A stretch of 63,852 bases of DNA, the filler included, from Hausera hauseri (Eukaryota), in the NCBI GenBank assembly GCA_046269625.1. It is 12 parts of 12 records of this genome, joined end to end, with 100 filler letters (N's around TTAATTAATTAA, not from the genome) between each part and the next. Parts side by side here need not be neighbours in the genome. Positions count along the whole stretch, not along the records: positions 48,788 to 53,595 come from JBJURY010428252.1; 11 more parts are not named here. One strand, written 5' to 3'. How positions within the stretch are numbered: position 1 is the first letter of the stretch; the number at the start of each line of letters is the position of its first letter. The translations under genes were made by a program, and so were the position numbers. Positions 10,993 to 63,852 of the stretch are shown one piece after another. The notes under the pieces were generated by a model. It saw nothing but the letters and a program-made list of their open reading frames with translations. It had not been told where the DNA came from and searched no databases.

Positions 10993-11364
10993 TGATCCTA
11001 CTCATACAATTCTAAAAAATTAAGAATTCTTAATAAAAATAACAATAAAAATAATTTATAAAACAAAAATAACAAATAGTAAAACAAATAATTAATGTTT
11101 TAAATTCTCTATTACTAATCAATGACGTATTTCCAATCAGTGATAAATTCACTTCAAATATCCTAACTGTACGCTAACGGTAATTCATTCGATAAATGAA
11201 TCAGACAAATTAATTAATTGTCACGTCTACTGACTGATTTTTCCATCCACTCGACAAACAGGAAATACGCAATCGACTATAAGCAACCAGTGAAAACAAC
11301 GCACGCAGTACACAGTTGTTTACAATACACCTCAGCAATAACCGAACAACTCACCGAGAATAGC

Positions 11365-11604
11365 AGATGCCGCTCCCCCATTCAGTCTCATATCGACCAT
11401 CGGAAACTGTCGATCTTCCAATTCCTGTTTGACAGCAAGTATAAAATCCTTTATCGTTATAGAAATTGTTGGTAATACACTATCCCCGCAAATGATCAGC
11501 GTGTCGTTTAAAACCGAATCCAATCGGCATGCTTCGGAGTAGTTCAAGATCTCATTGTTATTCGATTTATCTTCGACAGAAAAGTTGTTGGTGGCGGTCA
11601 TCAT
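11365..11604 (-). CDS. TENT5: TENT5/FAM46-family nucleotidyltransferase, N-terminal exon
   Basis: RLDSVLNDTLIICGDSVLPTISITIKDFILAVKQELEDRQFPMVDMRLNGGAASAIL resembles the FAM46 RLNG(G/S)AAS motif. Similarity ends at a GTGAGT splice donor. Confidence 0.78.
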
Positions 11605-23857: not shown

Positions 23858-26800
23858 ACGTATGCACCATCGGGGCATCGCGCATTCCGGCATTTTTCAC
23901 ATAGAATATAGCTTCTTTTAGTTTCTGGTGGCTGCAGTATTCTGCTGTAATTAATACCTTGGGGTAGTCTTTACTTGTCGAGTAATGGATGTTTTCTTGT
24001 GATTTTTTTCTTAAATACATTTACTTCAGTAAACATTTGTGTAGAATCGTTTTCTGACTTCCTTCTTGGTGCTGGGATTTTAACTTTTCTCTGAACCTTC
24101 TGGGACTAGATTACATCTACTTCATTTTGTGATTCACTACTCCTAGAATTAGTTTGGGAATATCCCACTGTTTTCTTCTTTTCCTTTTGCGTCTCTCCTT
24201 TCCTTGGAATATGTTTTTTTTTCGGGCGATTTTATTTCCTTTACTGATTTCTTCTGTCCTTTGACTTCTTCACGGTTTCTTTTTTTAAAAAGCTAGTCGT
24301 AAAGTGATTGTTTCCTCTTATTGACAGTGACTGTGGTTTCGGTTTTCTTCTTTTTTGAGTAATTACCCCTTTCACGGTATATTTTGGATTTTTTGGTGTT
24401 TTTATTTGTGGCCTTATCGCTCCTTGTGTGTGTTCGTAGTTTTTGTAATACATCCGTATTGCGAATGTATAAGTGTTTCCATAATTTATGACGTAACATC
24501 TCTCTTGAGCTCCATATGGAAGATCACAATGGATAATCGCCTGCTTATTCGCGTTCCAGAGAACTACTTGGTATTTTACTGCTCTTCTAACGGTTCTGTC
24601 GGTTCCAAATAGAGCACAGCTTCTTATTGGATGTATGCTTCGGATATTGACCTGCTTTAGACCCAAGGGCCAGTAGTATTTGTTTAGTACCCTATCTAAC
24701 GTCTTTTTTCCAGGACATGTGTCCAGCTAAATACGAATCATGTTCATCCATTAAAACTTCTGTTCGTACATTTTTGGTATCGCTACTAGTTTCCTTCTTT
24801 TTCGTTCATAGTACGGCACACTTTCGTTACCTTTGTTTGTGGAAACACAATATTTGTGTCCATGTCGCTGTAAGTGCTTCGTTAACTGGTGACCTTTAGG
24901 CATTACGTCAGTTTCAGCATGCTCAATGATTTGCTGGATAATCTTACTTTTCTTTTGTTCAATCGAGATTTTGACTGCTTTATCTAACGTTAGGATGCGC
25001 TGTAGATTTACGAACTCTTCGAGTTTATTTTTCTTCATTGTCATAATAGCACTCGCTTTTGTCTTGCGCCTTGATAATGCATACGCATCAATATGTTTAG
25101 TACCAGGATTATATTGAAATTCGATATTATACCTCAAAATTTCTTTGATCCATCTATTCAACCAGCATGTAGGGTTATATGCTGGTCTTTTTAAAGTTGT
25201 AACTACTTTGTGGTCCGTAACTATTATTATCCTCTGTCCATATATGTAGACATTTAAGTGTCTTAAGGCTTCTTTCACAACTAACGTTTTTAATTCCGTT
25301 ACTGAATAATTTTTCTCGGCTTTCTTTAAGGAGTGCCCTCCATAAGCGATTGGATGTTCCAGTTCTTCGTCCTCGCGTTTCTGTGCTAACTCATTCTATA
25401 CCTTCTTTACTTGCGTCTGTCTTAATGATAAATAGTAAACTAAAATCGGGGTATCTCAGCACTGGTTCACTAGTTAATATCTTCATCTCGTCGAAAGCTT
25501 TTTGTTCAACGTCTGTAAATTTCCATTTGATACCCTTCTTCAATAATCGGTATAATGGCACATATATTTTTAAATTATCTGGTACATAAGTAGCGTAATA
25601 TCCACATAGGCTTAGCCAATGTCTTAATTCTTTTTGGTTCTGAGGTTCCATACAGTCCGAAATTTTGTTCAATAATGATTTATCTGGTTTTGATCCTCCT
25701 TCGCCAACTATATGACCAAGGTAAAATATGGCATTATGAGCCCATTTACACTTCTTTGGATTTACTTTTAACTCAGCTTGTTCTAATCTCATAAGTGTGT
25801 TTTCCATGTCTTTTAGATGCTCTTTTTCTGTTTTTGATGCTAATATTACGTCGTCTAAGTACGCAAATGCATGCTCGAGTCCCATTAACATTTTTCATCA
25901 TTCTGGTGAAAATAGCTGGATCGGTGGTAATTCCTAACGGCATAACGTTAAATTCATTTACCCCATCTTGAGTTTTAAACGCTGTTTTATAGCGATCCTC
26001 ATCTTCAATTTCTACTTGCCAATATCCGGATTGTAAGTCCCGAATGGCAAACCATTTTGCTCCTAAGAGCCTATCTAGAGCCTCTTTTACGTATGGTAGG
26101 GGAAAAGAATTTTTCATAATAAGAGTATTTAACTCTCTGTAATCGATACAAAACCGATGTTTTGTGGTACCTTTCTTTTTGATCATAAGAATGGGTGAAT
26201 ACCAAGATCTAAAACTTGGCCTAATTATATCGATCTTAAGCATTTGTTCTACTTCCTTAGTTATTTCGGGTCTTAAGGAATGTGGTGCTGGATACCATTT
26301 TGTCATTTTCTGCTCTTCAAGATCAATTTCCTCATTGGAATCAGGCTTTTTCCTAAGTGGTATAGTCAGCTTTAACGCTTTTGCTCGACAGATGTCTTCT
26401 TCGTCCTTTGCAATAATTGACTTATATCGACATAGTAATTCATAAAATTGACAATAGGCTTCTGGTGAGAATTTAGTATCTACGTGCGGTGGAAATTCAG
26501 CATATTTATATGGTTTCTCTTCAACAGTTATTGCTGATACTTTGTAAGTGTGACCCAAAGTAGTGTTAGCGTATAATTTTACTGGAATTTGTGCATTGTT
26601 CACTATTCTGACTAGTATTCGACCAGATGCTACAGGGGTTAATATACTACTCAGTATTATACTTGGGTTTAACGTTTCTCTCGCCTCGAAATATTCTGGT
26701 AAGTCGTTGTCTTGACAGATATGTGCAAATATTAACAATTCCGTTCTAGATGGGATATTTTCTTCAACAGAATCCATACTTCCCCAAATTCTCTTTATTA

Positions 26801-28746
26801 ATTTTTGTTCCTTTTATCGGTCCGAGTTCAATTAGCTTCGAGGTGTTTAAGTATACCGCTATATTTGGTAGACGCCTTAATACATCGCATCCTAATACTA
26901 CGCCATCCGTTAAGTGTTCCATTATAGAAAATTCATGTTGGAATGTTTGTTCCATTATCTTGATATTAGTATCCCATTTAAATTTCGGTCTCGATCCTTA
27001 TCCAAAAGCTCCGATGCTTCCGGGGTCGGTTGCTAGCGGTAACAGCAGTTGATTTCGTAATGCTTTTGGTACTGATCTGTCATTTATGAATGATTTCTCT
27101 GATCCAATATACTAATTTTGGCGAAGGGTCTACCTTCTTTTATCCTAGACTGTTTAACAGAGGATACCTTGTGCCCATTTATACTTATTTCTGGTATGCG
27201 ACTAGTATCTTCGGCTATCTGTCTCAATTCATTAGAGGGATATAATCCGTTATTTACGCAGTTTTCATCGTCTCGTTCTTGCGTACTGATTAATGGTTCT
27301 TGATTGTTTGAATTACGAAAAGATTGCATATGTGGACTATCTCAAATCGATGATTTGGTTTCTACGTTTCGTGGGATCCTTGGGAAATATATTACCCTGT
27401 GATCGATGACAAAATTCCGATTTTTCTCTAGTTCCGTACATCTTCCGTAACGCACCGTATTGCTTTGTCCCTTCATAAGGGTCTTCATAGCTAAAAGGTT
27501 TCCTATAGATTTCCGACCTGTAAGAGTTAATTGATCTTTTATCACAGTCCTCATATAATGGCGCCGAAGGGCGCAGCATAAGGAGAGATGGTTTTATAAC
27601 CGAGTGTGCCTTATGTTTACTTATTTTTGAGACCACGTTTCCTCACTTAGGTTCGTCGTCATCTGATTCGTTTCTTCGTAATTTTATATCCCTTTGTCCT
27701 ATGAAGAATACGTGTTTTCTCTTTCGTTTCCGATTATAATAGCCAACATGTCTTTGAATGTTGCTTTTCCATTTGCTGTCTTCATAAGCCTTCAAAAATT
27801 TTCCGAAAGGCGTTATAATTGCTGTCAAAATTTTAGACGAAAATCCAGTTAAGGTAAATATTTCATAACCATTTATAACGGATTGAATTACTGCCTTAAT
27901 GAGTTGTACTAAAAAATATATAGCTAAAAATCCAGATGTAGCTTGTACGAAAATTAAAAATATTCCCCTGATCTTGTATAATATCTCCGTGGTGACTCTT
28001 TGATAATTATTGGCACCAAATAAAGATTCCCGTTTTGCCTGATAGTGGTATCGTCTATCACTGTTGATATAGCTCTATTCAAGTCATGTGTACGCTGATG
28101 AGGAAAAGTTAGAAACTGTCTAAGAGCCTCAATTTCCTTTGATCTGTAAATTGCGTTACTCGTGGTGTCAGCGAATTTATCATTCGTTATACCCTTTAGC
28201 AAATTCGTTCCTGTTAGTTTGTTAGGTGTATTTGTTATTCATCCATTTGGCAGGCTTACCCAATCTGTCTCACTTATCCTAAACATACGTTCTCCCAAGT
28301 CTGATTTACATTCCTTCAGAATTGTTCTTTGCTTTGAGTTTTCCAGTAAGACTCTTGTAAGTAGCATAGCTAATCGAGGTACGTTATGGTATAGGATTGG
28401 CAATTCTTGTCTACAGCGTTTTTCGTCTACATTTTTCAATTTCGTATGTTAACGGAACTTCTCCGGCAACTCTTTCGAAAATACCTACTTTCATTGTAAT
28501 TACGGGAGAAGCTAATTCCGAGTTGGCATATATTAAGGCCAATTTGGTCCTCATGATTTCTATGTCAAACTTATAGTCATTCGCGATCATTTTGTGATAT
28601 AAATCTGCTATCCCGGCTTGCCATTAATAATAAAAGTGATGGTCTCTGTTTCTCAAGTAGTCTTCTATTCTTACGTCTTGTGTTTCCAACGTAAAGGTAG
28701 TTATTGCAGCTTCTGCTACAAAGAATGCTCCGTAATATGTGGCATA
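23858..28746 (-). mobile_element. Gypsy-type element A: env C-terminal half, linker, degenerate PR, RT, RNase H, start of integrase
   Basis: Env RVAGEV...CRQELPILY...AIYRSKEIEALRQFLTFP and TM VQATSGFLAIYFLVQLIK (about 27640-28746); RT RFCIDYRELN, DLQSGYWQV, YLDD; RNase H KTDASKEG, TDHK; integrase Zn region GHMSWKKTLDRVLNKYYWP. Confidence 0.9.
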
Positions 28747-28846: not shown

Positions 28847-31800
28847 AACATGCAACTGAAACCAATATGTTTACCGGCGTATCCAAGTCAGCATTTTATA
28901 ATAAGAAAGAGATCGGTTTGTTTGTGAAGTTTTTGGCATATCCAAAACAAAGAGAACAAATCGTAAATCGAGGGGTACATCGAGTAATAGATGACACAGC
29001 AGGAGAAGGAAAATGGGATTGATTATGGACTCCGGATGCCTATAACAAAATTGTCTCAAATTTGTGGTATAAAATGTGAGGAGGATTTCTAAGATTTGGC
29101 CAAGTAACCTCAGGGTTTCTGGCAATCTACTTCATTATACAAATTTTAAAAGTTTGTATCAACTCTGTACTGAATGCTAATAAAATTTACAATCTAACAG
29201 AACTATCGTTGAGTATAATAGGTGCTTTATTTTCTCCAATTGGCAAATTCATTAAAGCCTACCATGAAACACAATGGCGAAGTAAATTAGAAAAACATGT
29301 TGACTACAAGTCAGAGAAACAATTTCCAAAGGATACCTCATCAAGTTCAGATGATAATACTGCCCCTGAATATTGTCGTACAACAGGGATTCCTAAGAAC
29401 AAGAGAAGACAATTCAAATTTATGAAACCGAAGACAAAGAAAAAGCACAAATTACCTGCTGCACCACATGAGAGTAAAACAATGCCTATTTGTAAATTCC
29501 CTAACCTAACAGATTTAACGGAGTCTTACGCGAAGAAAGAAGATTACATAAAATTACGTAGCTTACCAAAACACTATCAGGAAGAGATACGTCAATCTAT
29601 TATTACACGAAATATGGAAAATAATCGAATAACATTACCAATGTCACCTAAACTGGGCATGATACCACCAGTACCTTATCACCAAGTAACCAGATTAATA
29701 GAAGTTCAACCAGACAGAAAATCCCATTTTTCAACTTCAATATTTAAACCCAATAATAAGCAGCAGACAATATCAAAGCATTCAACTCGCTACCCAGACT
29801 TGACCGAACTCAAGGATAAAGCCAAAGGGTCAGAAAATGATACACAATCACAAGAAAGTCTAACGGCCATATTAACTAACGGCACTCCCCGATACTGTTC
29901 AGCCAGTTATACCTTGATGGAACCTCACAGATGATCACAACGACGTCCTAACATTTCTCGAATTACTAAGAGATAATCGACCTCACACTACAGTTCATTT
30001 CGGTACTTTTGACCTTAACACTATGGTAGATACGGGAGCGAACGTGGCATGATTAGCGAAACAGTCAATTCCTGAAAATTTACAATATCAAATAAAATTA
30101 GCCACCAAGGATTCGCTCAGTACCATTTCAGCCTTCCAGCAGTGTAACAAACCTTATGGATAATGGAAATGTGAACCATGAATTTTCGGACAAAGAATCA
30201 AAATAACTTTCGACGTAATGACCACCTTAGATCCAAGATGGATCCTAGGGATGAATGTCTTACGGAAATTACAGGGTGTTCACATAAATCTACAATCTGG
30301 ATCAATTATCCCTAATAACGAAAATATTTCTCATACCTACGATAAAGCAGACATATGGGTAGGACATGCTGAGAAAATACAACCCAATTCCAGGATAGTC
30401 ATACATGCTAGAACGATATTTTCAGACAATAGTGTAATCGAGTTCGTACAGAAAATACTCCAAAACTGACTTATACTGCCACATTATTGCGTTAACGTAG
30501 TCGGAGGATCTATCCACATAGAAATTTTAAATCCGACACCAAATATGCCACATTATTCACTAAGATGAAACTTGGACGGGCCCTGGAAACTACTCATCAT
30601 GAGGAATACAACAGTAAAATCGCAATTACCTCAACCCAAGGTGAAGAAAAGGAAGAAGATGTAATTGATATTGTTCTCGCAAAAGCGAAGAAAAACTTAT
30701 TATATGAATATCTAGAAAACTTCTTCGATCTCATTTTTGAGTATCTTGACATTTTTGCCAAAGACGAAACAGATATAGGACTAACTGATTTGGTCAAATT
30801 CAAACTATCATTTATGATTGACCCATTATCAGGAAAAGAAATAGACTTGTTGCGACAACCCATACCAAAGTGGTACCCTCCTCCGAAAGCACTCTAAAAG
30901 GAAATTGAGGAACAGATTCAAACTATGTTAAGCAAGGGTATCAGAGCCTAGTCAATCGCCATGGACGTCACCTATAGTAATGGCTACAAAGGTTAATACG
31001 GCAAAACACCGTTTGTGTGTAAATTACGTTACCTTAAGTAAGCACTTAATGAATCACGCTTATCCGATTCCTCGAATACGAAACATTATAGACGAACTAA
31101 AAGATTGTAAGTATTTCACTACATTAGATTTACAAAGTGGTTTTTGGCAAATACCCAAAGCTGCAGAAGATCGGTGGAAAAATGCGTTTAAGACCCTACA
31201 AGAGTTTATCAATTTACACGTATGCCATTTGGTTTGAAAACGGCACCCACCTTCTTCCAAAAATTTATTCGTTTGGTATTAAAAGGAGTACGAGGATTAT
31301 CATACATTGACGACATTCTAATCGCATCCAGGACATGGTCGGCAAATCTAGTAGAGTTAAAAGAAGTATTTGAACGAATTAGGCTTGCAAAATTAAAGCT
31401 AAATCTGAGAAAATGTGAATGGTGCAAGAAGGAAGTGAGATACCTTGGATTTGTTGTCTCCCACCAAGGTATATCTACCAGTCCTGATTTGATATCTAAA
31501 ATATTGGAATATCCCCCACCAACTAACGTACACGAGATGAAAGCTTGGTTAGGATTGGGAGGATTTTACGCTACCTTTATAGCCGACTTTGCAGAAATTA
31601 ACCAGCCTCAATATAAACCATTAAGAAAGGACCAAAAATGGGAATGGACAGAAGAGAAGCAGAATGCTTTTGACGAGATCAAAAGGCGAATGGTATCAGC
31701 ACCGATACTGAGATACCCGGACTTTTCACGTTTGTTCATTCTGAAAACTGACGCAAGTATAAAAGCTATTAGTTATATATTAGCTTAGCAAGACCCCGAC

Positions 31801-33481
31801 GAAACAACTGAACATGTAATTGCCTATGGAGGACGAAGTTTAAATAATGCAGATCGAAAATACTCAACCATTGAATTAGAGCTACTAGCCATTCAGGATG
31901 TATTGCGACATTACAAATATTTTGTTTATGGTCATAAAATTATATTTACAGATCACAAAGCACTGTTATCCCTACGCTCCGACAATAGGCATGTATCAAG
32001 CCGACTCGAAAGATGGAAGTTAGAGCTTCTGAACTATGACCTTGAGTATCGATATCGTCCAGGAAAAGAAAATACGGATGGAGACGCCCTTTCGAGAATA
32101 CCATACGAAAGAATAGTCGCAGCAGCCCATAAGCCAATAGATAACGGAAGCGATAAACAATTGAACGAAAAAATTATCAACGATATGTTACAAGAACAAC
32201 GACAAATTCAGGTCCGGAGTATAGAGACTTTACAAAATCAAGATCCATTCATTGTTGAAGTCAAATAATTACTCAATGGACAGTTAGTTGGCCCAGTATC
32301 TAATTCAATTCAACAATTTTATACAAAACACAGAGAGAATCTAGAAATTGAAAATGGCATTTTAAGACTAAAAGTCGGTGAGCGATAACTGATCATTGTT
32401 CCCACACCAGCAATTAAATCTGTTATACTTCAAGAACATGATTCACACTTAGCTGGACATCCGTCCTTAAATAAGACTCTGAAGCGTATAACTGCAAAGT
32501 ATTATTGGCCTCAAATGAATAAACATATTGAAGGATGGGTTCGTTTGTGTAAAATATGTGATACACGAAAAGACAGAGGGTTCCGTGTTTAACATTTTTT
32601 GGCCAGTCTACCTGAAGCTCGGAAACCAATGGAAGTGTGTTCAATGGATATCTCTGGACCCTTTCCAATTTCCGATTCAGGATACAAATATATATTATCA
32701 CTTGTTGACTATTTCTGTCTCTATGTTGTACTAGTACCCTTAATAACATGACTAGTGACACCGTGGCGGAAGCCTTTTTCTATGCGATTGTAGCCGTACT
32801 GGTCGCACCGAAGCAGTTATTAACTGATCGCGCTCCATATTTCATCAGCGAATTATTCGAAAAACTATTGAAAATATTTCACTGTAAACATCTGTTGACT
32901 ACATCCTACCATCCGCAATGCAACGGTATGGTTGAAAGGATGAATTGTACAATCCCAGGTATTCTTTTTACAAAAGTAGCACATGATCAAAAGGATTGGC
33001 ATAATCATTTAAAAACTACTGCCTTTGCAATCAATACTACACCAACTAAGGATACTAATCATTCACCTTTCGAATTAATGTTCGGACAATTACCTTTATT
33101 ACCATGAGATACGGAATTATTACCATCATCCTTATTGACAAGTGACCACATGCATGAGCAATATCAGAATTTGAATACTTCCAAAAAGAAGCGAAAGAAT
33201 TTGAAGAAAAATACAGAGCCGGATATAAAAACAATTTAATAAGAAGGCACGACCACATACCTACAAAATCGGCGATTACATAATGGTTCATTATCACTCT
33301 GCAAAGTAAAGTAAGTTGTTAAAATTAACACGTACTGGACAAAGACCATACAAAGTTGTTGATGTGCGCCCACAGACACTTTGTCCAGAATGGACCAAAC
33401 AAATACGAAGCGGTCTCTGTTCAACGAGTAACGCGAGCCCCTGCACCATACAACGACTTTATTCGGGAAACAAATACTGAT
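28847..33481 (+). mobile_element. Gypsy-type element B: env C-terminus, linker, PR, RT, RNase H, integrase
   Basis: GGFLRFGQVTSGFLAIYFIIQILK (about 29080-29150) runs into ORF 29209-29934. PR MVDTGANV near 30025; RT LDLQSGFWQI, YIDD; RNase H KTDAS, TDHK; integrase H...GHP...YYWP...CKIC, LTDRA, YHPQCNGMVER. Confidence 0.92.
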
Positions 33482-35330: not shown

Positions 35331-36600
35331 CTGCTCAAAGCGTATTTTTTTGCTTTTATAAAGTCTATAAATCTGGAATACTCGCTCTTGTCTATTCCAC
35401 TGGGCGTATGTACCGCACCATTCTGAGTTTCGGTATCAGAATCGAATGACCGTTGCGCAACTGAGGCTCGGGATAGGTTTACGACTGATATTTCTACGCC
35501 ACGCAAACTAATACATGGCTTCGAGAAGAATATGAAACTTTTTTTGATAGGGTTCAGGAAACTAGACAGTTTTGTAAATACCAGAAATCGATCTGGTCTT
35601 AGTCTTGCTTTCAAATTTGTTGGGTACTGTCAACCTTAGATTGTACAGATTCTTGAACAATTTTGTCGTAATTTCGTATGTCAGTCCTGATAATCTGTGT
35701 AAAATACTCTCATTATAATTCTCTTTTAAAAAATCCTCCTTGCACTGTAACTCCACTGTTTCCTCGTTTTCATTATTAAGCGACAATATAATGTAATAAC
35801 ATTTAGTTTGGTCATGTGTTAACAGAAGGTTAACTTGCATCACAAAGAATATGTGCCTTTCGTCCAAATATGGCAACAAGAAAAACCGTACAAAATGATC
35901 TTTTGACACACTGTAATAATATATTTTACTACGCAAATGTATGAAATTTTGACACAGTTTGATAATGTATCGCTTGCGAGGTTGTAGGCAGTGCATTTTC
36001 TTCAAAGTAACCAGAGAATCCGCCTAATTATTTACGGTGTTTGTCTCGCTTTTTACGCGCAAGTACAAATCCTCCATAATATTTTCTTTCTGTGAAACTG
36101 TTGCAAATTGCCTTACACAAATAGGAAATGCATCTTCGGTAGATTGAAATTGTATTGTTAATTGGTTCTTCGACAGATTGACATTAATCACATCTTGGAA
36201 ATTTATGTCAAAACAACGCAGATTGTTAACTAGAAATTTTATATATTCGTCGTTAATGTTTGGTTTCCTCTCATTCCGGCCTACCACACAATTATCAATA
36301 TTGACCACAGAAATTTCATAATTTACTTGAAAAAATTTCGAAACTTTGTCACACTCATTTTCCGAAAATCCATCAAAATAAACTCGTTTTTTATTGAGAA
36401 ATTTTAAGCACAGTCCGAATCCTCTAGCACGAAAGAACCATTCTGCAGAACGAATTTGTTTGGACTCAAAGTGACCGCTTTTCCCGGTTTTCTCATTTTT
36501 ATAATAAATTGTCGGCAGAGTTAATTTGACTTTCATTTCGGAACACGATCCAAGCTGTTCGTAATAAAGATTGTCAAGTACATACGTATTCTGCACTTGT
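35330..36600 (-). pseudogene. SSRP1: SSRP1/POB3 (FACT subunit) divergent copy covering the PH and Rtt106-like domains
   Basis: YKNEKTGK...YFDGFSENECDKVSKFF; CLQPRKRY...RFFLLPYLDERHIFFV...SGLTYE...TVPNKF; FIFFSKP...QRSFD...IDKSEYSRFIDFIKAK. In-frame TAG at 36024-36026 and a frameshift near 35570. Confidence 0.88.
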
Positions 36601-36828
36601 CTTTGAACAATGGCGAACTTCCTTTTCAAATTGTACTGTAATCTTGATATCATTAATAAATAATCATCCGTTGAAACTCCCATATCGTTGTAATAACTCG
36701 TTAATTTCGGTGAGCAGTATTTCTGAATTGGTTTCTCTTCAGTCGATTTTTGAATTGGATAGAAAAATATGGAATAGAATCGCTCAAGGTTCTTGTTAAG
36801 CATTTGGACCATTTTACAGCTGAGAATA

Positions 36829-37545
36829 TTAGTCTTCAAAATTTGGTGTTGGGAATAGAATTTTCATTGATTCAAAATTTTTAAATTCGTGTCTCTGACA
36901 GAATTCAAACAGGGTATCTATCAGAGGTCTCAATCGGTGATATGTAAAGTCATTTTCATAAAATTCATTTTCCATCTGACTAACCGGTTCAGCCCACAGA
37001 GGTGTTTCCGGATAGTTTTGCGGTACCTTGATAAAAAACAGAAATTTATGATATCCATCTGAATCCGAAAAGACATTAAGTTTCAAACTGACGTTGAGTT
37101 TCAATTTTGTAAAATCCATCAGTTGAATTAGAATATTTTTATGGTAGTTTTGATGTATTGATCGAAATAACACTGATAATTCATTGTTTAATTCTTGGCC
37201 ATACTCTCTCATTAATACCATGAAATCGATGGATAATAATACATTAAAATAATATAACAATACATTAAGACTGCCTTTGTTTGTTGCGTATGTAAGAAAA
37301 GTTGATGTCGATTCGAAACTTGTAATGTATTCATTGGAATGTGCTTGGTCGGGAAACGTTTTTCTTGGTCGACCATTCTTTCGGTCATTCTCACCAGTAT
37401 TTTCCATCAACTGCAACCTTAATTTTCTATCATACCACGCTGCAGCATAATTGTCATTCGACTGAAGTTTTGTAATGTTCTTAATGAATTCTTGTTCTGA
37501 CACCAGATGTTGTTTTATTAATATTATATTTACAAGTAATAGCAA
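36829..37545 (-). CDS. Hypothetical protein with a possible RWD/UBC-like fold
   Basis: 238-aa ORF; FFIKVPQNYPETP resembles the PxxYPxxP motif of UBC/RWD folds. Confidence 0.35.
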   Translation of the reverse strand: MLLLVNIILIKQHLVSEQEFIKNITKLQSNDNYAAAWYDRKLRLQLMENTGENDRKNGRPRKTFPDQAHSNEYITSFESTSTFLTYATNKGSLNVLLYYFNVLLSIDFMVLMREYGQELNNELSVLFRSIHQNYHKNILIQLMDFTKLKLNVSLKLNVFSDSDGYHKFLFFIKVPQNYPETPLWAEPVSQMENEFYENDFTYHRLRPLIDTLFEFCQRHEFKNFESMKILFPTPNFED

Positions 37546-39134
37546 AAGATCTGAGAAAACAAAAATTATATTTCAAAATTTAAAAGAAAAATCATAATAA
37601 TGAAAGACGTGATACAGACAATGTAGATAAATTTGACTTTGTTGTTGTTGTGGGGGTTAGGACAATCAACATTGTTCTGCAATGCAAATAGAAACACACA
37701 TTGTAAAGACACATGTGGTAGAAATTCAAATTACCTGACAGCTATCTCTTCCTAAACTTTATTCAGCTTATCTTTTTTTTTATATTTGGTTTCAAATAAA
37801 ACTCCAATAAACTGTAGACATTGATTATTGAGTGCCCAGTACTGTTAAATACTGTACAACAAAATGTTGCACATTTTGTATTACATTCTGAATACATATT
37901 AGAAAAAAAACTGTATTTCACATAACTAAAACTTGGGCCTTGATTGTGTTTTGATGCCATTTCACAATTAAATAATTCACAATTTGGTAACCATCGGTTC
38001 TCATAATAAACACACCATATATTTCTGTATTATGACATCTTGACAGATAAAACAATCTTGTTACTGAAAGATAAAACAACCTTGCTAGAGATCAGTCACA
38101 CCCGATTAACTTTATCACTGAATTAGATCACAAGACACAACATCTGAATCCTTAGCATCAAACTGAATAATTTTCCTTAAATATTATATATAATGATTTT
38201 AATTTATTAAGCAAAATTCTATCATCGTTAGATATAAATATAATACATAAAGCGTAACTGTGAAATTCCACGTTCATTCACTAACTAACTACTATGCCAA
38301 TGTTTATGATTTTGTCTGTCTTTATCAATACACAACTGACCTTGATCACAAAACACAAAAACAAGTTACGCAAACACATTATGTTTTAAAATAAACAGAC
38401 AGTAAATCAAAATTGCACTCTGTGACAGAAGATTGTCAGAAACTGTCAGAAAGGTCCAAAAAGTCTGACGATCGCTACAAGACAGACTGCACCTCTGTAT
38501 GATAATAGATTTGTTGTTTAAAGTGTGGCTGGAACAAAATGGCTCTCTCCATCGGTTGAGGGGGGGCTAGCTTGAGTTCTCACTATTCCCACCCTCTCCA
38601 CCTTAATGGAAGTTTCACACTAAGAACCACTTGTATGTTAAAGCATTATTTTCTCATGCATGGAATTGAAATTAGTCAATAGGCTTAAAACGTAAAAATA
38701 ATGTTTGATTGACAGTTCCCCAAAACATACTTAATTAACTGTTTAGTTTGATACAAAGTTGCTAAACGTCTTCACTTTAGCGACTCTCGCCCAGAGCTGC
38801 AGCAAATAGAGTCAAATGCTGAAGCCATTAAAATAATGCAGGGAGTGGAAAATGTAAGAAATTATCCAATCCATGATTTTTTGCCACTCAACAGTTCAGA
38901 AGATCAGGATTCTAATACAGACCCTGAAAGCACAGCAGATATAGAACATGTATATGAAAACCAAGGAATGATAACAAGAGCTCAGACATATGAGTCTTTG
39001 AACCAGCCTGTAACTTCAGCACACTTTACATACANNNNNNNNNNNNNNNNNNNNNNNNNNNNNNNNNNNNNNNNNNNNTTAATTAATTAANNNNNNNNNN
39101 NNNNNNNNNNNNNNNNNNNNNNNNNNNNNNNNNN

Positions 39135-40220
39135 CATCAGGGAATTCGGCGGGATCCTTTATTATTCCGTCCGATATTGCTGAGAGATATATCCTGTTTC
39201 TGATTATTTCTCTTAATTTTACAGCCATTTAGAATTATTTCACGGTACATTGTATAAATATTCTTTTGATGAAAATGATAAACAAAATCCCACTAATTAT
39301 CAAAGTATAGATGTCGTTCCACTTCTGATTTATCAATTTTTCTTTTTGCATCAACTATTATAGTTGTTGACAAAAATATTCTTTTAGAGTACGTTCGGTA
39401 TATTACCCGGTTACATCTCTTTGCATCACTTTTTATTTTGAATCTCATCCTTTTGTTTGAGTCTTCAGAGTATACAATAGTTGGAATCTCAACCATATAT
39501 GACACTCGATCTAATCTGCTTTTCGATATTTTTTTCTTATACATTTGTCCTTCGGTTTCATTAAACTTTCCGCATATTCAATGGCATTGATATTTATCGA
39601 CTTCGTATCCAATGTTGATTCACCTGTATCACATTTTTTGTTGTAATAATCACACTTAAGGAATATCATAATTTTTCCTTATTCCAATTCGAACACGGCA
39701 TAATATTCTCTCAACTCAATTTGATAACCCTCGATAGCTAATACATTATCCAGAATTTCCCCATTTATATTGTAATATTCTCCCTTACAATATCCTGTCT
39801 TATCAATTGCTCCAGCTACAAAAATTCTTTTGTTAATAACTTTTCCTTTTTGAGCCTTTAACCGAATACTTCCGATATTAATTTGTTTTGTTACAAAAGC
39901 CTCGATACTTACTTCAAACAAAGTAGCAGGTTCTATTATGGCTGAGTTTTTATACCAGTAACCACAAATAAAGTGAACGTGATTCTTTCGCACGAAACAT
40001 TCTATAACTTTAGTTTTCGCAAATATCGATTCTTGATAAACGTGATATTCCTTACCGAATGTTGTAGTTAGCGATGCCGGATTGGCATATGTACATTTCT
40101 CTATGTCTAGCAATAAGTATATCGGACCTTCCTTTTCCTGACTATAGTAATATGCGATGACAGAAAATGTTTTCTGAATAAAATTGAATAACAGAAGTAC
40201 ATGTAGGACTTTAATTACCC
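39135..40220 (-). pseudogene. Chuvirus-like envelope glycoprotein, N-terminal half (element D)
   Basis: Hydrophobic WVIKVLHVLLLFNLF, then SVIAY...LLDIEKC...YQES...KVIECFV...FICG...AGAIDKTGYCKG...KCDYYNKKCDTGES, a Cys pattern like chuviral-type G proteins. Confidence 0.72.
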
Positions 40221-42100
40221 AAAATAGATCAAGATCTCGCTATTGGTTCTGCTGTCTTTCTTGTTCGCGTGATGGAAAATTTTCTGTTTATCTCTGGACT
40301 GCCGATTCTTGTATTGTTATTTGAATCAGGCTACTGATCCATCCAACTGTACATTTTAACCATCCTTCTACATTAGCTTTTAATGATCTTATGGCTATTT
40401 CTATATTTCTCTATATCTCCTTTTGGTTTGGATTTATACCATTCATCACCATTACTTTATACAGGGGGTACGATACAGTCGTTACAATTTTACTTCTAAA
40501 TATATTCGTTCCTATCATTCTGGAAAGTATACCTCTTCCTGGTAACTTGTTTATTTTCTCATCCGTATGAATATCTGCAAACTGCTCACTAATTTTTGCT
40601 ATTTCATTCCCAATGATCTGCATTAGTGAGTCTGGTATTTGCAAATTTGTATTGAACTAAATGAATGCATTGTGCATTCTTACTAATAAGGTTTTCAGCA
40701 TTGTTATCAATGAGACATTACTTGCATCATGATCGCCTTCAGTTGTTAGCAATCTTCGGACAACTTCATCACCTCTTGCTTTTCTGCCTTTCAATTTATG
40801 CAGCTTTGCCGTTCATTTATGTCCATCTCGATTCCTTTTATCGATCTGAATCTGTTCTGATATAGGAATATTTGCTTAAATTCCTGTTTGTTGAACTTCA
40901 TAATTTACTTCAGTTCTTGCATACCTTTCTGTCTGACTTCAATGAAAATTTCTTCTAATATTTGTTGTTCGGTTTATCTAAAAGACATGTAAATCGGATT
41001 ATATCTTTTTCCCACATACCTACTTTGTACATGGTTTCATAATCTCCCAACATCCGTCCGCGGAAAGTAAACATGAATTACTTCATTAATATTGTTTCAG
41101 TGCAGCTATTATATCGAACGACTTCAGTCTCAAAGCATGAAAATATTGATTATATTGTTGAAGGGTAACCACTACTATGGTTTTCACTAACCATTCTTAT
41201 TCTATCTGTGTTTCAATAAATTATATATCGTACAGAATTTTGGTGTGAACTCTTGTTAGCAGCGTATATTAACAACAGGTCCAATAAATTTGGAAACTGT
41301 TGATGTCTAACTGTAGGTAATAACAACATTTTGAGATCCTATCTGAATTGAGTGCCTTCATTTAATTCTTGATTTGCGGAAATCGTCATTTTTCATACTA
41401 TTTCTATGCCATCTTGGTCCAAATCTATAGGTGAAGTTTTCAACTGTTGAGGTAATTCTTTCACTTTCTTATTCTTTTTAGCTTCTCGACTTGGGCACTT
41501 TTTTCACTACCTGAGGAAGGAGATGACTCAGGAGTTCCTAATTCCTCTTCGTATATAAGAGGTTTGTTTTTTCTTTTAATCTTTTCATTTCGACATCTGA
41601 TTCTGATGCAGGGTTCCTTTTAGGCCTGTATACCAGAGCGATGATTGAATTATTATTATTCATTTTGTGCCACTCTTCGCAAATTTATTGCTCTTTTAAC
41701 TCTATATATAGCTGCTTTAGCTACTTTATACTCATAATCTTTTATCATATTTGTTTTACTTTCCTTCAGCTTAGCTCTAATCTTTTCTTGGAGCTTTTCT
41801 ATTGCATCTCTGAATCTGTATTTATAATTTCGTGCTCATTATCTGTATCGGATATATTACCAATTATATCAACACTTTTCTTTTTCAAGCTTGACTGTCC
41901 TTGACTGGACCAGGAACGCGCCATGTATCTTACAGGCAAAGCATAGTGGTTGTCATCCTGATTAACCATGGCTTCTCCATTGTGGACTTTTGAGTTTGAC
42001 TCTGAAAAGTAACATTCTTCTGCTGTCGCTGAGGCTGATTCTGCAATTTTTGAACTGGCGTTTTAAAATATTTCTTTTGGTGAAAATTTTTCACTTTCTT
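40220..42100 (-). pseudogene. Degenerate ORF1 of element D (gag position; identity unresolved)
   Basis: Purine-rich coding-like strand with scattered stops between the PBS and env. Charged N-terminal part; no CCHC knuckle seen. Confidence 0.5.
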
Positions 42101-48787: not shown

Positions 48788-51700
48788 ACAGAGTAATCCA
48801 TTATTATACTGGGTCAGTGGCACCACTCTATTCTTCTTTGTAATTACAAGTGCAGGTACATTTTGATGAATGTAGTATAGGAATCCATCTTTCTCTTCGT
48901 ACGCATCGCAAAATCTGATAAAATTACGACTTAATTTGCTATCCTTTGGTATAATTTTGTTTTGTATATAATTTCTAATGCTTTTATTTCTTCATCTTCT
49001 CGTTGACTTTTTTTAGTATCTCTATGGATCCATTCATACTCCGTACAGCTGCAATTGCCTCTTTCTTTTCTACCTCTTTTTGCGGCATTCTTGATAAATA
49101 ATCCGCGTTCGAATTTTGTGTGACGGTCTTGTACTGAAAATCTAACGTATAAGGTTGAAGTTTTAAAGCCCATCGTAGTAGTCTATTATTGGGATTCTCA
49201 TGTTTCTTTAGCCATTGCAGTGGTCGATAATCTGTACAGATTACCAGCAGTTTATTCTCACTGATATACGGTGAGAATGCTTCAAAGACGAATATTACTG
49301 CTAGCAGTTCTTTTTCAATAACGGCATATTCCTTTTGATGTTTGTTTAATTTTCTCAACGCATAAGCAACTGTATGTTCTTTGCCATCTTCGCCCTTTTG
49401 TGATAATACCGCTCCTACTCCACAATCACTTTCATTCGTTGCCAATATGAATGGTTTGGTCATATCTGGGTAAATCAGAATAGAGGCGTTCTTTCAGGAC
49501 TTCGAAAGCCTTTTTGCAATTACTTATCCATGTTACCTTCTCTAAATCTTCACGTAATAATCCATATAGTGATTTGGCTATTTTACTAAAATTCTTTATA
49601 AATCTTCGATAATAGTTTGTGAGTCCTAAAAATCTGCGTAATTCATTAACATTAGTTGGTTTTGGGAAATCTTTAATTTTATTCAATAGTCTACCCTGGA
49701 ACTTTTCACCACATCTATCGACTCGATGTCCAAGAAAATCAACTTCGGTTTGGGCAAATGAACATTTCTTCGGGTTTACTTTTAAACCCATTACTTCGCA
49801 TCTATCAAAAAGGTATTGTAAGTCCTTCAAATACTGTTGGAAATCCGATGACGCTATGATTACGTTATCGATATATACCATAGCATGTGGTGCGTCTAGA
49901 AGTAATAATTCTGTTCCTCTTTGAAAAGTCGGGGGCTCATTATTTAATCCAAATTGCATTCTATTGAATTCCCATAACTCTTCGCCTATAGAAAAGGCCG
50001 TTTTCGGCTTAGCCTCTTCCTTTACTTCTACTTGCCAATATCCTTTCTGTACATCAATTTTAGTGAATATGGTTGAGCCATGCAACTTATCAAATATTTC
50101 GACAATCTTTGGTAATGGGTACGTGTCTGTTTCCGTTATTTCGTTTAATGCTCTATAATCTATACAGAATCTCATAGCTTCATCTTTTTTACCATCAATA
50201 CTGTAGCCGTCCATGGGAAGCAGCTGGGTCGTATTATTTTGTTTTTCCTCATATCATTTATAATCTTAGGAGATTCTTCCTTTTTGTCGTATTCCAATCT
50301 GTATGGTCGTTTCTTAATAGGTTTGTTTTGACCCTTCGTCAATTTGATCGCATGTTGTATTACGTTCATCGTTCCTAAATCATAATCATTCCGAGTGAAT
50401 CAGTTATTGTTTTTCTCTAACAGTTGGCTGTGCATTCTTCTTTCTTCATTAGATATATTACAATTTTGTAATTTTTCTTCCCAATTAAAGCTGGTAATTT
50501 CCTTCTCTCTGTTTTCATTTAGTTTTCCTTTTGGTTTCTTCGTCATAAGTTTCTCGATTTCCTCTACTTCTGACATTACTGAATTAATTGCTTCTTTTGG
50601 TACTTCTTAAACATCTGTTGCCTGCCCAAGTCTCATATTCTTTTTTATCCGCTTTTCTATTGCTCTCGTATTACAAATCCTCAAATAAATTTTTCCGTTC
50701 CTTATCCTATATGTGTGTGGTGCGACAAGGATATTATGCTTCTCCATTATTTGTGGAAACGGTTCAAAGTGCACACAGCTTGTCAGTGATCTGTACTCTA
50801 TTTTACCAGGCACTACTATCTCTGAACGTGGCAGAATTATAACATCTTTAATTAGTGAAACTGATCCTTCATATCGATCTTCAAACCTTCTTAGTTGTCC
50901 AGTTTTGACATCTATATACACATTATCCAATTGACACAATACATCACATCTGATTAGTATTTTGTTTGTTAAGTTTTTGGCCACTCTTATGGTATGGTTT
51001 ATTATTTGGCCACAGATTTTAATTTTTGCATCTAAAACTGTCTTTATCTCTACCTCCATACCAAATGCTCCCACATTAATCAATGTTTCTTCTGGTTTTC
51101 GCAATCTACTCACCAACTCCTTGGGTAATTGACTCTTCCCCATTATAGTAATAGTGAATTTCGTATCTATTAGGGCCTTTAATGGGTGTCCATCTACTTT
51201 AATGTCGATCTCAGGTCTTGTTGCTGACTGGGACCCGTTCTTACTACTCGTTTTGCACGTAGGTTTACGATTATATGATGTGGTATTCCCTTCATAATCC
51301 TGTTTCAAGCGTAGTACTCGATACGTGGGGTACATTCCTCCATGTTTCACATATTGAGGAGCTGATGGACTTAACATTTGTTCGTTATATATTTGTCCGT
51401 GATATTCATCTGCAGGATTTAACTGAGGTAAATCAGTAACCAGTTTTCGTCTATACTTCTGTCTTCGTGATTTTAATGAAAATCGTCTAAGTTTTATTAC
51501 ATATCTACCACTTCTGAATTTGATATTCAAATCATTTTCGTCCTCGTCATTTTTACTGTTTAGAGTACTATATGGCGAATTCTTCTCGATATTGTTATTT
51601 CTTTCTTTAAGTATTTTCCTTTTCCATCTTGCGTCATGATTTGCTAGGAAACAACTAGCAACTGCTGGTATTACCGCCATGAGGACTTTGCATGAGCATC

Positions 51701-52840
51701 CTACTGCTGCATGTATTCCGTAAGCTTTACCAAGTGCAGTGAATATCGTCCGTAGGGCACTGATGATGAAATATATTGCTAAAAATCCTGAAGCAGCCTG
51801 ACCAAAATGCAGGAATTTTCCCCACATCTTTTCCATAACATTTCTGGTGACTTTCTTCAAATAATCTCTTCCCATTAAATTTTCCCATTGTGGTGAACCT
51901 ACTCCATCTCACATCAGTCTTCTTGTTAACTCCGTTATTACTCGTTGTCTCTGCTGGGGAAACAGTAACATTCGTCGGTAGTCTTCTAAATTCTGCTGTG
52001 TATAAATTCCTCCTTGTGATATGCTGGTACGTGGTTCAAATTTCTGATTTCTTTGTCATTTAATTATACTTAACGTTTCTGGTTTTGCTACCGGTTCTCT
52101 TTTCGTCATTCTAATCCATTTATAGTCCAACTTATACATCGATGACATTGAAAGTAAATTATCCAATTGGGTTGGTCTTGTGTTAGCGTCTAATAATATT
52201 ATTGTTACTGGCATCACGTATCAAGGTAATTCCAAAATACATTCCTCCATAGGTCTAATAGCTACTTCTACCTTTTTACACTCAATAGTTATCAAAACTT
52301 CGCCCATTACTCTTCCAATCACCCCATCGCCAAATGGCATGATTGAAGATACCATGTCGGAATTGGTTATTACTAATGCCATCTCATTCCGTATTATTTG
52401 ATAATTCAGTTGGCATTCGTTCAGTATAATTTCTCTGCATAGACTTCTGATCTCTTTCCTGACGTAGTTGATTAAAAAGTCGATTTTATTACCAAAGTAT
52501 TGCATAAAATTTATATCCTTCTTATCTATTTTGGTTTTAGCTTGGGCTACTTCCTTAGACGAAAGGTATATGTCTTTGTAATTAGTTTTGGATATTTCTT
52601 CATTACACTTATTAATCGCTCCAATGATTTTAAATTGCATTATTTCTTCGGTATTTTCTTAATATACTACCGTTGCTACTTCCATCATCTTTACTTCATT
52701 AACTCTTTCCTTATATGTTGTCGAATCTCTTCCGGCCGTTTTTCCTACCTTCTTATTAAATTTTCCTTCCTTTAATAACGTAAGATGGTATTGATTCGAA
52801 CTAACGTCCCATGTCATTTTAGATTCTGTAGTATCACATT
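48788..52840 (-). mobile_element. Gypsy-type element C: env, linker, PR, RT, RNase H
   Basis: Env GVIGRVMGEVLITIECKKVEVAIRPMEECILELP and SQGGIYTQQNLEDYRRMLLFP. ORF 50607-51875 joins TM WGKFLHFGQAASGFLAIYFII to PR ALIDTKFTIT. RT RFCIDYRALN, YIDN; RNase H TNESDCGVGAVLSQ, TDYRPL. Confidence 0.92.
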
Positions 52841-53295
52841 TGGGATGTCTTCTGGTGCTACCGTTATTTGGTAGTAGGCTTTTTCGAGATCTATGGTTGA
52901 ATAAATCGTAGTCTTGTGTAAAAAATGCAATATATCTTTAATCAAAGGTAGAGGATAAGCGTCCATGGTAGTGACGTTATTTAGTTGGCGATAATCGCCT
53001 CATGGATAGAATGTGCAACCTTTTTTCGGGACGACGTGGAGTGGTGATGCCCACGGTGATTTTGATCATCTTATTATTCCAGCTTGCTCGAGTGCGGAGA
53101 ATTCCGCTTGGACTGCCTGTTGACGGCGTAGTGAAAGTGTGCGGAGTTTTTGCCTAACGGGACTGGGGTTTTCTGTGATGATATGATGTAACGTTGTTAG
53201 CCGGTCAAAATTCTGGGTCTTTTTTAATTGTATGGAAACAAGACTTGACTAAATATTATTGCATTTCCTGGCTAAGTGTAGTGAAGATTGTTGTC
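52841..53295 (-). mobile_element. Separate CsRn1-like Gypsy RT N-terminal fragment abutting the env of element C
   Basis: AEFSALEQAGIIR*SKSPWASPLHVVPKK...GDYRQLNNVTTMDAYPLP...IDLEKAYYQITVAPEDIPK. Confidence 0.85.
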
Positions 53296-53859
53296 NNNNN
53301 NNNNNCAGTGTCTTGCGTGGATTTAGTATGAGAAATGGTAGAATTCGGGCAGTAGGTAGAAAGCAGTGCATGAGATCAGACCATTACCTCCCCCCAGGGA
53401 AGGAAGGAAGTCAATGAGAAAAGAACACGTCATCGAAGATGGAAAAACAGGCCAATGAGAGGAGGACAAGTCATCGTGGGGGGGGTGAGAAAAACTGACC
53501 AATTGGAGAGCAGTATTCGGTAAAACAAACATTATGTGATTTGGTCGTGGTGTCACTATTCCCACCCCTAGAACAAAGCGATCTGTTCGTGGTTTNNNNN
53601 NNNNNNNNNNNNNNNNNNNNNNNNNNNNNNNNNNNNNNNTTAATTAATTAANNNNNNNNNNNNNNNNNNNNNNNNNNNNNNNNNNNNNNNNNNNNCTGAA
53701 GACTCTGAAATTTCACTTCGACAAATTCAACAAAATACAGGCATAACAAAAAGTACGGCCTAAAGAATCCACATTTAATGCGGCAAGAACGGTCTCAATA
53801 CAAATTCAAAATTTATAGACTGGTATATTAAACGGCCGAGTACTAGCTCCAATACAGCT

Positions 53860-60248: not shown

Positions 60249-62361
60249 GTATGTAACGAAAACAGTCTCTTTAAAACCGAAGCACGATACTTGGTTCGTC
60301 GTAAAGATCCTGATCTCTGGTGTGAAGTTTTGGGCGACAGCAATGAGTACAGACGTCAGCTAATTGACCAAGTCGTCCAAACAGCGTTGTCCGAAACTCA
60401 AGATCCCGAAGAAATCTCCATTGCTGTCAAAGCATTTATGGCCGCCGATATGCCCAATGAATTGATTGAATTGCTGGAAAAGATCGTTTTGGATAATTCC
60501 GTGTTTAGTGATCACCGGAACTTACAGAACCTGTTGATTTTGACGGCAATTAAAGCCGACAAAACGAGAGTTATGGAATATATCAATAGACTGGACAATT
60601 ACGATGCACCGGACATTGCAAATATCGCCATCACCAATGATCTATTCGAAGAAGCATTTGCTATTTTCAAGAAATTCGAAGTAAACACGTCAGCTATTCA
60701 AGTGTTGATTGACAACATAAAAAATTTGGATCGTGCGTACGAATTCGCCGAAAGGTGCAATGAACCAGGTGTCTGGAGTCAACTTGCATTGGCCCAATTG
60801 AATTCTGGGTACATCAAGGAAGCCGTTGATTCATATCTGAAAGCAGGAGACCCCAGTCAATACATTAAGGTTGTTGAATGTGGCAAAAAAGATGGTAACT
60901 ATGAAGACCTCGTTCGATATTTGCAAATGGCTCGCAAGAAAGCACGGGAAACATTCATTGAAACCGAATTGGCATATGCGTATTCAAAAACGAATAGACT
61001 AGCCGATCTGGAAGAATTTATATCCGGTCCAAATCACGCTAACATAACTCAAGTTGCCGATCGGTGTTTCGACGAGAAATTATACGAGGCAGCAAAATTA
61101 CTGTACAACAACGTGTCAAATTACGCTCGTCTGGCGATCACTCTCGTTCATCTCGGTGAATATCAGGCTGCCGTCGATTCAGCACGGAAGGCAAATTCTA
61201 CACGAACGTGGAAAGAAGTTTGTTTCGCATGTGTGGATAACGAGGAATTCCGATTAGCACAAATGTCCGGCATGCATATCGTTGTTCATGCTGATGAATT
61301 GGAAGACCTCATCAATTACTATCAAGATCGCGGGTTTTTTGAGGAACTCATTGCGCTGTTGGAGGCCGGATTGGGTCTGGAACGAGCTCACATGGGAATG
61401 TTCACCGAATTGGCTATCCTCTATTCCAAATATAAACCAGCAAAAATGAGAGAACATTTGGAGTTGTTCTGGAGTCGAGTGAACATTCCAAAGGTGTTGC
61501 GTGCTGCTGAACAGGCACATCTATGGTCAGAATTAGTATTTTTGTACGACAAATACGAGGAATACGACAACGCTATCATTACAATGATGAATCATCCAAC
61601 GGAGGCATGGAAAGAGAATCATTTCAAGGACATAATCACAAAAGTCGCCAACATCGAGCTATATTACAAGGCCATCGGATTCTATCTGAACAACAAACCG
61701 CTGTTACTTAACGATCTTCTGAACGTGCTCATCCCTCGACTAGATCACACACGAACTGTCAATTATTTCAGCAAAGTTGGCCAGATTCCACTGGTGAAAC
61801 CGTACTTGCGTCACGTGCAACAACACAACAACAAATCTGTCAATGAGGCTCTCAACACTCTGCTGATCGATGAGGAAGACTATGAGGGTCTGCGAGCGTC
61901 CATTGAGAATTATCACAATTTCGATAACATCTCTCTGGCTCAAAAACTCGAGAAACACGAACTGATCGAATTCCGTCGAATTGCAGCGTTCCTGTACAAA
62001 GGTAACAATCGATACAAACAGAGTATCGATTTGTGTAAGAGGGACAAATTGTACAAAGATGCAATGCAATACGCCAGTGAATCACGAGAAATTGATGCTG
62101 CCGAGGAGTTGTTAAACTGGTTCTTATCGGAGGGTCTGTACGACTGTTTTGCTGCCTGTCTGTTTACGTGTTACGATTTGCTACGGCCAGATGTCGTTTT
62201 GGAATTGTCATGGCGGTATAACATCATGGATTTTGCAATGCCATTCATCATTCAAGTCATGAAGGAATACATTGAGAAAGTTGATAAACTGGAGAAGGCC
62301 GATGCTATTCGGACAACGAACGAGGAAAAAGCCGAGTTGGAACACAAACCAATAATGATAA
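60249..62361 (+). CDS. CLTC: Clathrin heavy chain, large internal exon
   Basis: [24 protein letters not shown]...[14 protein letters not shown]...[21 protein letters not shown]...[12 protein letters not shown]. Acceptor tttcgtag ends at 60248; donor GTGAGT starts at 62362. Confidence 0.97.
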
Positions 62362-63852
62362 GTGAGTAGTTTGATTATTCGGTTAACGGAATTTGCGATT
62401 TTAGGATAACTTACCCTTTCCTCCTTATTTTACACTGTTAATATTTATATGTATACAAAACTCTGTAATTTATTTATTTGATACAATTTTGAATATTTCG
62501 ATCAAATAAAAATATTATTTAGGAATTTTGTGGATTATTAAATTTTGGCTGTCAAGTAGAATAGTGTACCAAATTTTTCACAATTTTTATTGAAATATTT
62601 TTTATACTACAAAATCCAGTATTCTCAGATATTTTATTAATAAATTTCTCTACATTTTCATTGTTTAAATACATTATTTAAATGAATTCCAATAGAATTT
62701 TAAATATTTGACCTTGGTTACTGTTTTACAAAATTATGTCTCGTAATATAACACTAATTTTCTTACGATTCATCCAAGTCTACTAATTAAGTGTTGAATT
62801 GTAAACAGTACATTTGAGGAAAAATGGACAGAAAAATGTATGTCGACATTCTGAATGAAAGTCTTCGAGCGTCGGACAAAAAATGAAAATAGAAAAGAAA
62901 TTCGTGCTACAACAAGACAAAGCTAGCAAAGTCGAACGGGAATGTTTAAGGAAATCGAAAACTAAAATAGCTTTGCGAAACATCAACCAATGCAGAAATG
63001 TTGAAATGGATTTCATCATGAATATTCAGTTGAGAATTAACCGATGAATGATGATTATGTGAACAGAATGAGCCCATTTTTAAAACCAATGTATTGACCT
63101 GCAACATTACTCATTGGAAATTTCTCTTAATGTTTACTGATAATCGTTTATCGATTTAAAATTTTCATACACACTATTTCTTGTTCTTTGTGTGTATATA
63201 TTTGCTTAAATTTTGAACTGAAGTTTCACCTTTATTAACTTTCCAACAAAAATACTAAAAATAGCGCGCAAGTAATTACTCAAAATTAATACATTTAAAC
63301 AAATCGATACTAAGATATCCTCTAGCAAACAATATTGAAAACGTCAGATTCGACGTTAGGTATGTACACAATGTAACTGGCATGGTTTTCAGTGGTTTTC
63401 AAGTACTATATGAAAAGTATTTTACAAATGCACACATTGCATTTTCCTGTAGACTTTCCGAAATTTAATGTCTCGGTTTGATTTTTTCTGATCACCGTGT
63501 ATATTTTATGAATATAAAATTTCACACGTGAGAGAGAGGAATCGTCACTACCGAACTAAAATTTTACAAATTTGCAATTTCAGTATGGAAGCCATTTTCG
63601 ATTTGTGATAAATAATCAACATGATTAGTAGTGTTATTGCCAAATTTTATAAAAATGCATTGACCCCTATTCGAATACTTCTCTACTAAGTGAAATTGAA
63701 TTGACTGAAAACGAAATTGAACTGGGCATGGTGTATTAAAAGGTCTAATTGTCGTCTGGTTATTTAAAACTGGCATCCTTTTTGAATCCGGTGCTTATCT
63801 CATAAAGACCCGTTTAGATGCCAGTAAAAATAAATTTCAATTCAAAAATAAT

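Follow-up and report, generated by a model that had tools for sequence, protein, structure and literature searches.

Ty3/gypsy elements with the order GAG-ENV-POL and an env of the HSV/gB type are described from Nematoda, Bryozoa and Platyhelminthes in the available text of Chary and Hayashi (eLife 2026, PMC13524379), in which GAG-ENV-POL was searched for only in non-insect genomes. Nine flatworm elements are given there, including six of Schmidtea, and copy numbers reach 215; Sacco et al. (2022) are cited for a flipped ENV-POL order in nematodes (NERV). Mosquito Anakin elements (Dezordi et al. 2020, PMC7642597, in the sections available) are LTR retrotransposons with a chuvirus-like glycoprotein. 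Unlike Anakin, which is of the BEL/Pao type, the elements studied here have gypsy-type RT relatives and no BEL/Pao-type pol. Troyka was rejected as a counterpart because it has no env according to the available part of PMC12440569. A literature search for GAG-ENV-POL retrotransposons gave PMC13524379 as the sole match, and a planarian search gave nothing relevant.

The window, the whole stretch of DNA analysed, comprises 63,852 nucleotides of Hausera hauseri and consists of 12 short contigs with N-spacers between them. Element C is situated on the minus strand of contig 48788-53595 (JBJURY010428252.1), and elements A, B and D are found in the same window. The canonical place of env is after integrase. 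The sequence-only reading knew of no described element with env upstream of pol; this novelty was not borne out, as the order had already been published (PMC13524379, available text). Element C is a real feature with a correctly recognized fusion and a known layout, probably a decayed member of the GAG-ENV-POL kind. It resembles Smed_errantivirus_1-6 (Platyhelminthes clade C1a), as far as these are described in the available text of PMC13524379, in the position of env before pol, the gB-type fold, the multi-copy state and motifs of env domains I-II, and differs from them in being broken; no gag and no LTRs were seen in this copy. An env-pol in one frame is not stated in the available text parts of PMC13524379, and the words 'polyprotein' and 'in-frame' are absent from the available passages of the bioRxiv version.

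Element C and its surroundings

The features of the env-bearing elements and of the adjoining RT fragment were determined as follows (PR, protease; RT, reverse transcriptase; RH, RNase H; IN, integrase; TM, transmembrane helix).

51822..52840, minus: element C, C-terminal two thirds of the env ectodomain with four in-frame stops (PF24664; stops in frame)
51732..51821, minus: element C, env TM (hydropathy and a motif common to A, B and relatives)
51222..51731, minus: element C, amphipathic segment followed by a basic cytosolic tail, both without stops (reading frame)
50610..51221, minus: element C, aspartic protease with a degenerate motif, followed by the PR-RT linker domain, both in the frame of the TM (RVP, E 1.3e-5)
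49483..50609, minus: element C, RT (RVT_1, E 5e-27)
49077..49490, minus: element C, RNase H (RT_RNaseH, E 8e-34)
48791..48985, minus: element C, probable integrase start, where the contig ends (weak tblastn segment)
52841..53290, minus: RT fragment of an unrelated gypsy family, directly adjoining the truncated env (tblastn, 33-38% to the RT N-half)
24466..28746, minus: element A, C-terminal half of env, TM, PR, RT, RH and IN with many frameshifts (tblastn and profiles)
28864..33381, plus: element B, end of env, TM, tail free of stops as far as 29931, then PR in a different frame, followed by RT, RH and IN (tblastn and profiles)
39194..40233, minus: element D, signal-like helix and N-terminal half of env (40218-39194) on a separate contig (tblastn and profile)

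The uninterrupted ORF from the env TM into the protease, proposed earlier at 50607-51875, was confirmed on the minus strand. The stop-free frame extends over 50610-51908, with 433 aa from stop to stop and 422 aa when counted from the ATG at 51875. In Pfam searches, this frame matched PF24664 (Monjiviricetes_fusion) at aa 9-119 with an E value of 1e-15 and the RVP protease at aa 230-327. When stops were written as X, the frame could be followed from 52838 to about 50185 through the ectodomain, TM, tail, protease, linker and first RT motifs; its PF24664 match reached an E value of 2e-58, and a single collinear alignment of 906 columns was obtained with the natural polyprotein P0075 (27% identity, E 6e-95). 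The env profile matched the contig at 52871-51537 (E 4e-91), and the PR profile matched the region 50610..51221 (E 5e-27). The RT starts in the frame of env and continues in another one, and the RNase H is back in the first frame. RT and RNase H were detected by Pfam downstream of the env-protease frame, which agrees with the earlier reading and gives the pol order PR-RT-RH. For integrase, tblastn gave only a weak segment, corresponding to its probable start, where the contig ends.

This copy is a fossil with stops in env, frameshifts in RT, a degenerate protease motif (no intact catalytic motif is present) and no gag. Against the limit of Chary and Hayashi for an intact ORF, at most 5 stops and no large truncation, the frame 52838-~50185 contains six in-frame stops before RT, and the frameshifts and the truncated env are added to these. 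The contigs of the window end inside the elements, and no LTR-like self-repeat was found in the related metagenome loci L001-L004.

The 5' third of env and gag are missing from element C because env breaks off at ~52840 against the RT fragment. No nucleotide match of this fragment to the RT of element C was detected, nor any preferred match to the env-bearing group, and the DNA upstream of 52840 is part of the RT of an unrelated gypsy family in place of the remaining env. Of the contigs of run X1 that leave the element C stretch, 16 do so at 52839 and 3 at 52845; no piece bridging the ~52840 junction was found among the 16 pieces listed from this run, 1493 more being outside the list. The fragment at 52841-53290 belongs to a second high-copy gypsy family and may have arrived by nested insertion, recombination or misassembly. 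On element C itself, 11,591 contigs of run X1 were placed at ≥85% identity and only 673 at ≥99%, all 30 bins being covered, a contig depth that does not equal copy number. This distribution suggests that the family of element C is large and diverged, although run X1 may itself be the source of the window; the word share of run X2 is small. No common joint or indel between the TM and PR was listed among these contigs.

The sequence-only reading had also assigned the order env-PR-RT-RH-IN to elements A and B. The order was found again by tblastn and profiles, and the two elements are clearly diverged; the in-frame fusion, however, was seen only in C, as stops and frame changes are present between the env tail and the protease of A and B. 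Apart from one 87-base match, hardly any nucleotide similarity exists among elements A, B, C and D, which consequently represent separate families. The three frames of element D had no match in Pfam. Gag was detected neither upstream in element D nor anywhere in the 12-contig window by Pfam, motif and profile searches.

Several other features were observed in the window. Polinton-like type B DNA polymerases that carry endonuclease VII domains are located at 1598-5432 and 8376-11001, and a 391-aa frame with a Dna2/Cas4-like nuclease match at 14535-15707. On the minus strand of 34055-37572, degenerate pieces of WDR19, SSRP1 and MEIOB are closely packed with few or no introns; these are possibly captured or retroposed fragments of host genes. 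A clathrin heavy chain exon of 706 codons at 60249-62366 is a usable host marker. The contig 19256-23757 contains no 120-aa frame and is strongly depleted in CpG, with an observed/expected ratio of 0.29 versus about 1 elsewhere.

Relatives with env, protease and gag in one frame

A full HMMER protein scan with the fusion ORF (E ≤ 1e-3) resulted in 61 relatives. The env TM was followed by the protease in one protein in 13 of them, including 11 of the 12 relatives with E ≤ 1e-10. A TM without a protease after it was found in 35 of the 61, mostly short fragments: 26 end within 60 aa past the env match and 9 have a longer tail. Three of the 35 form a separate, more distant branch. One relative stops short of the TM, and 12 contain the protease only. 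Judged from these proteins, the env-protease fusion is not an accident of the element C copy.

The RT search, which admitted only proteins of 1751-5000 aa and thereby left out close relatives lacking env, gave 52 matches among 461 candidates. All of them were gypsy-type, and PF24664 was present in 6 of the 52. Among these long proteins, P0005, P0006, P0007, P0010 and P0011 were closest over the full RT (50-54% identity), and four of the five are single-ORF env-PR-RT-RH-IN polyproteins. P0006 starts at the protease and P0076 is a gag-env-PR protein; since the same longest contig of 21,743 bases is listed for both, a single element may have been split into the two. The only matches with names were the nematode protein P0039 and P0075, a 2627-aa env-pol polyprotein in a record labelled as a Flavobacteriaceae MAG protein, which is likely animal DNA in a bacterial bin.

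Of four metagenome loci, L003 is a fragment, and L001 (3703 aa) and L004 (2693 aa) each encode gag, env, PR, RT and IN in a single frame. L002 has gag, one in-frame stop at 3058-3060 just before the env signal, and env in the same frame; the stop may be a read-through site serving regulation, or decay. Several relatives consist of a single Gag-Env-PR-RT-RH-IN frame of 2,600-3,900 residues. Gag was detected upstream of env in 9 of the 14 relatives tested, in 8 of them in the same ORF; in the other 5 no gag was detected, the ORF starting 150-420 aa ahead of env. The Env-Pol polyprotein of the sequence-only reading was therefore correct in its in-frame env and protease and incomplete in missing gag; with gag in the same frame in 8/14 relatives, the product is likely Gag-Env-Pol.

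Word-indexed searches among longer proteins gave no match, either for the fusion ORF or for the env-PR frame. The locus scans of metagenome and viral contigs with the single fusion ORF were blank, as was the scan of viral contigs with alignment A1, and the atlas contained no usable match for the fusion ORF. The polyproteins P0005, P0007, P0073, P0076, P0133 and P0039 each contain between two and six protease-like motifs, some of which are located after integrase. Downstream of the L001 polyprotein, ORFs at 11375-12040 (222 aa) and 12085-13470 (462 aa) were found, neither with a Pfam match.

In 9 of 10 integrase-complete relatives, two hydrophobic segments corresponding to a signal and a TM follow integrase, with an ectodomain of 100-350 aa between them. 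The window contigs stop before this region. A signal-ectodomain-TM protein in the same ORF was found in P0007, P0010, P0011, P0073, P0075, P0133, P0136, P0006, L001 (~10006-10950) and L004; P0014 and P0039 have no signal-TM pair after integrase. Diversity among the ectodomains is high, with BLASTP matching only 2 pairs in 10 regions; that of P0010/P0011 is of a short Cys-rich type. A short motif common to seven of the segments was presumed to be fibronectin-III-like. The PDB entries matched by a profile of these 7 hand-picked segments were for the most part FN3 proteins, with a best E value of 0.005, and the atlas gave an fn3 score of 0.80 with low recognition; in Pfam, none of the 7 had an fn3 match. 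The apparent FN3 likeness is weak and partly circular. The available text parts of PMC13524379 do not mention a membrane protein after integrase, and a literature search for gypsy env-like proteins with fibronectin type III gave no paper.

Env fold and position among known elements

That the domain upstream of the protease is a viral glycoprotein was corroborated by the PF24664 match of the element C frame and by the model of a related env. The L004 env, which aligns to the window env at 23% identity (E 6e-30), was modelled with a pLDDT of 76.6 from an alignment of 29 sequences, and all its listed fold matches were herpesvirus gB (best E 8e-15). The TM-scores to gB, a class III fusogen, were low (0.21-0.29), which would be expected if the domains are placed differently; the identity to gB in the modelled comparison was ~10%. 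Element C's own env was modelled poorly, with a pLDDT of 36. Searches of PDB sequences with env gave nothing significant. Pfam PF24664 is the one basis on which closeness of the element C env to chuvirus G is suggested. The scores with this profile were 198-327 bits for envs of the window type versus 45-47 bits for nematode elements.

In all 16 env-bearing relatives examined the ectodomain starts with a hydrophobic run, a small-residue site and [AG][FY]DC. The run is located 150 to 1200 residues into the ORF, and it exceeded the hydropathy threshold in 9 of the 16.

In the quick env tree, element C was nested among the fused relatives with an SH-aLRT of 96, apart from P0014, P0039 and three unfused envs. 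The quick RT tree, from which P0009 was left out as too short, grouped A, B and C with the closest fused relatives (SH-aLRT 81). The careful RT tree, which included 26 of the 52 proteins and the three window rows, left the placement of A, B and C without resolution.

Of the characters of the GAG-ENV-POL kind, the Ty3/gypsy order PR-RT-RH-IN was found in A, B and C; env upstream of pol and an HSV/gB-type env, the latter by the PF24664 match of element C and the gB-like model of a relative, were found as well. NERV elements reportedly contain a continuous gag-env-pro-pol frame, and monophyly with the nematode elements is said to be their membership criterion. P0039 (Aphelenchus) is NERV-like: in a single protein of 2943 aa, its gB-like domain precedes PR-RT-IN. 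It ends soon after integrase, and it is distant from the window elements in RT (37%) and env. This one nematode representative was outside the window env group, and with an RT tree without resolution the window elements were not joined to NERV. The env patterns YxVYQE[ST]D..EC and CxTGxS of six Schmidtea envs are present also in D, C and relatives, and are lacking in the bryozoan and nematode env rows examined (all compared by eye, on the rows available from PMC13524379). Element C is likely near the planarian clade, as its env patterns suggest.

A putative membrane-spanning Gag-Env-Pol polyprotein

Element C is most probably a decayed, 5'-truncated Ty3/gypsy copy with a gB-type env in frame before the protease, likely of the GAG-ENV-POL kind, whose active form would be expressed as one Gag-Env-Pol polyprotein. 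By the threading rules of membrane proteins, Gag and Pol would face the cytosol and Env the lumen. Gag would be made in the cytosol, and an internal signal helix would then direct the chain into the ER. Such an internal signal peptide is indicated by the hydrophobic run and small-residue site before [AG][FY]DC in the env-bearing relatives. The host signal peptidase would free the N-terminus of Env from Gag, and the Env TM helix, the one clear TM after the ectodomain, would bring the chain back to the cytosol. PR-RT-RH-IN would stay tethered to the Env tail until released by the protease of the element. The earlier proposal of such a membrane-tethered Pol holds as a reasonable one, given the single frame of env, TM and PR. 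In this way a single membrane would bring together Gag, Env and Pol, which is needed for an enveloped particle. We infer the Gag-Env fusion of element C from its relatives, gag being absent from the window. To judge by its env stops, RT frameshift, degenerate protease and missing gag, the element C copy itself cannot follow this scheme.

Excess Gag would be permitted if Gag were separate and Env-Pol were obtained by read-through, by frameshift or from its own start, an arrangement close to the Env-Pol model of the sequence-only reading. The stop of L002 directly before the env signal would fit this arrangement, as would the five relatives whose ORFs begin shortly before env with gag undetected, as it is in the window; single stops, however, are also produced by decay, and gag within the same stop-free ORF in 8 of 14 relatives makes a separate Gag quite unlikely. 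The elements could also belong to an independent env-before-pol lineage of an unreported host group, e.g. an arthropod, outside the flatworm clade. The restriction of the eLife search to non-insect genomes (PMC13524379, available text) leaves room for such a lineage, the env is nearer to the chuvirus-like profile than those of nematode elements, and the careful RT tree does not place the window rows. Nevertheless, the env motifs fit the Schmidtea set and not the rows of Bryozoa, Nematoda and Insecta available for comparison by eye, and an independent lineage is considered unlikely.

A free-standing chuvirus glycoprotein inserted beside a gypsy pol, or a chimeric contig, has very little probability. 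Chuvirus-like glycoproteins in arthropods are often flanked by gypsy fragments, as stated in the available part of PMC10084718, and the contig has one chimeric-looking junction at ~52840. Against this stand the collinearity of element C with P0075, the same order in A and B despite almost no nucleotide similarity to C, the 13 fused relatives, and the coverage by run X1 contigs in all bins with no common TM-PR joint or indel listed; this explanation has already been largely refuted.

Within a single Gag-Env-Pol polyprotein, the segment after integrase allows a further, tentative suggestion: two surface proteins might be released from one polyprotein. Between Gag and Pol this would be a fusogen of the gB type, and after integrase a type I membrane protein serving for attachment, often with an FN3-like head on a Ser/Thr-rich stalk. 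If true, fusion and attachment would be combined in the entry system of a retrotransposon, a new entry design for retroelements.

Element C as found is one more, broken, example of a printed layout. For the family, a Gag-Env-Pol product of 1:1:1 composition raises the puzzle of how Gag is supplied sufficiently. The family further raises the questions of how one membrane-spanning protein is threaded, processed and kept in balance, and whether the elements pass between cells. The relatives make this testable through their conserved internal signal ahead of Env, their protease domains, numbering one to several, and their second membrane protein, which follows integrase.
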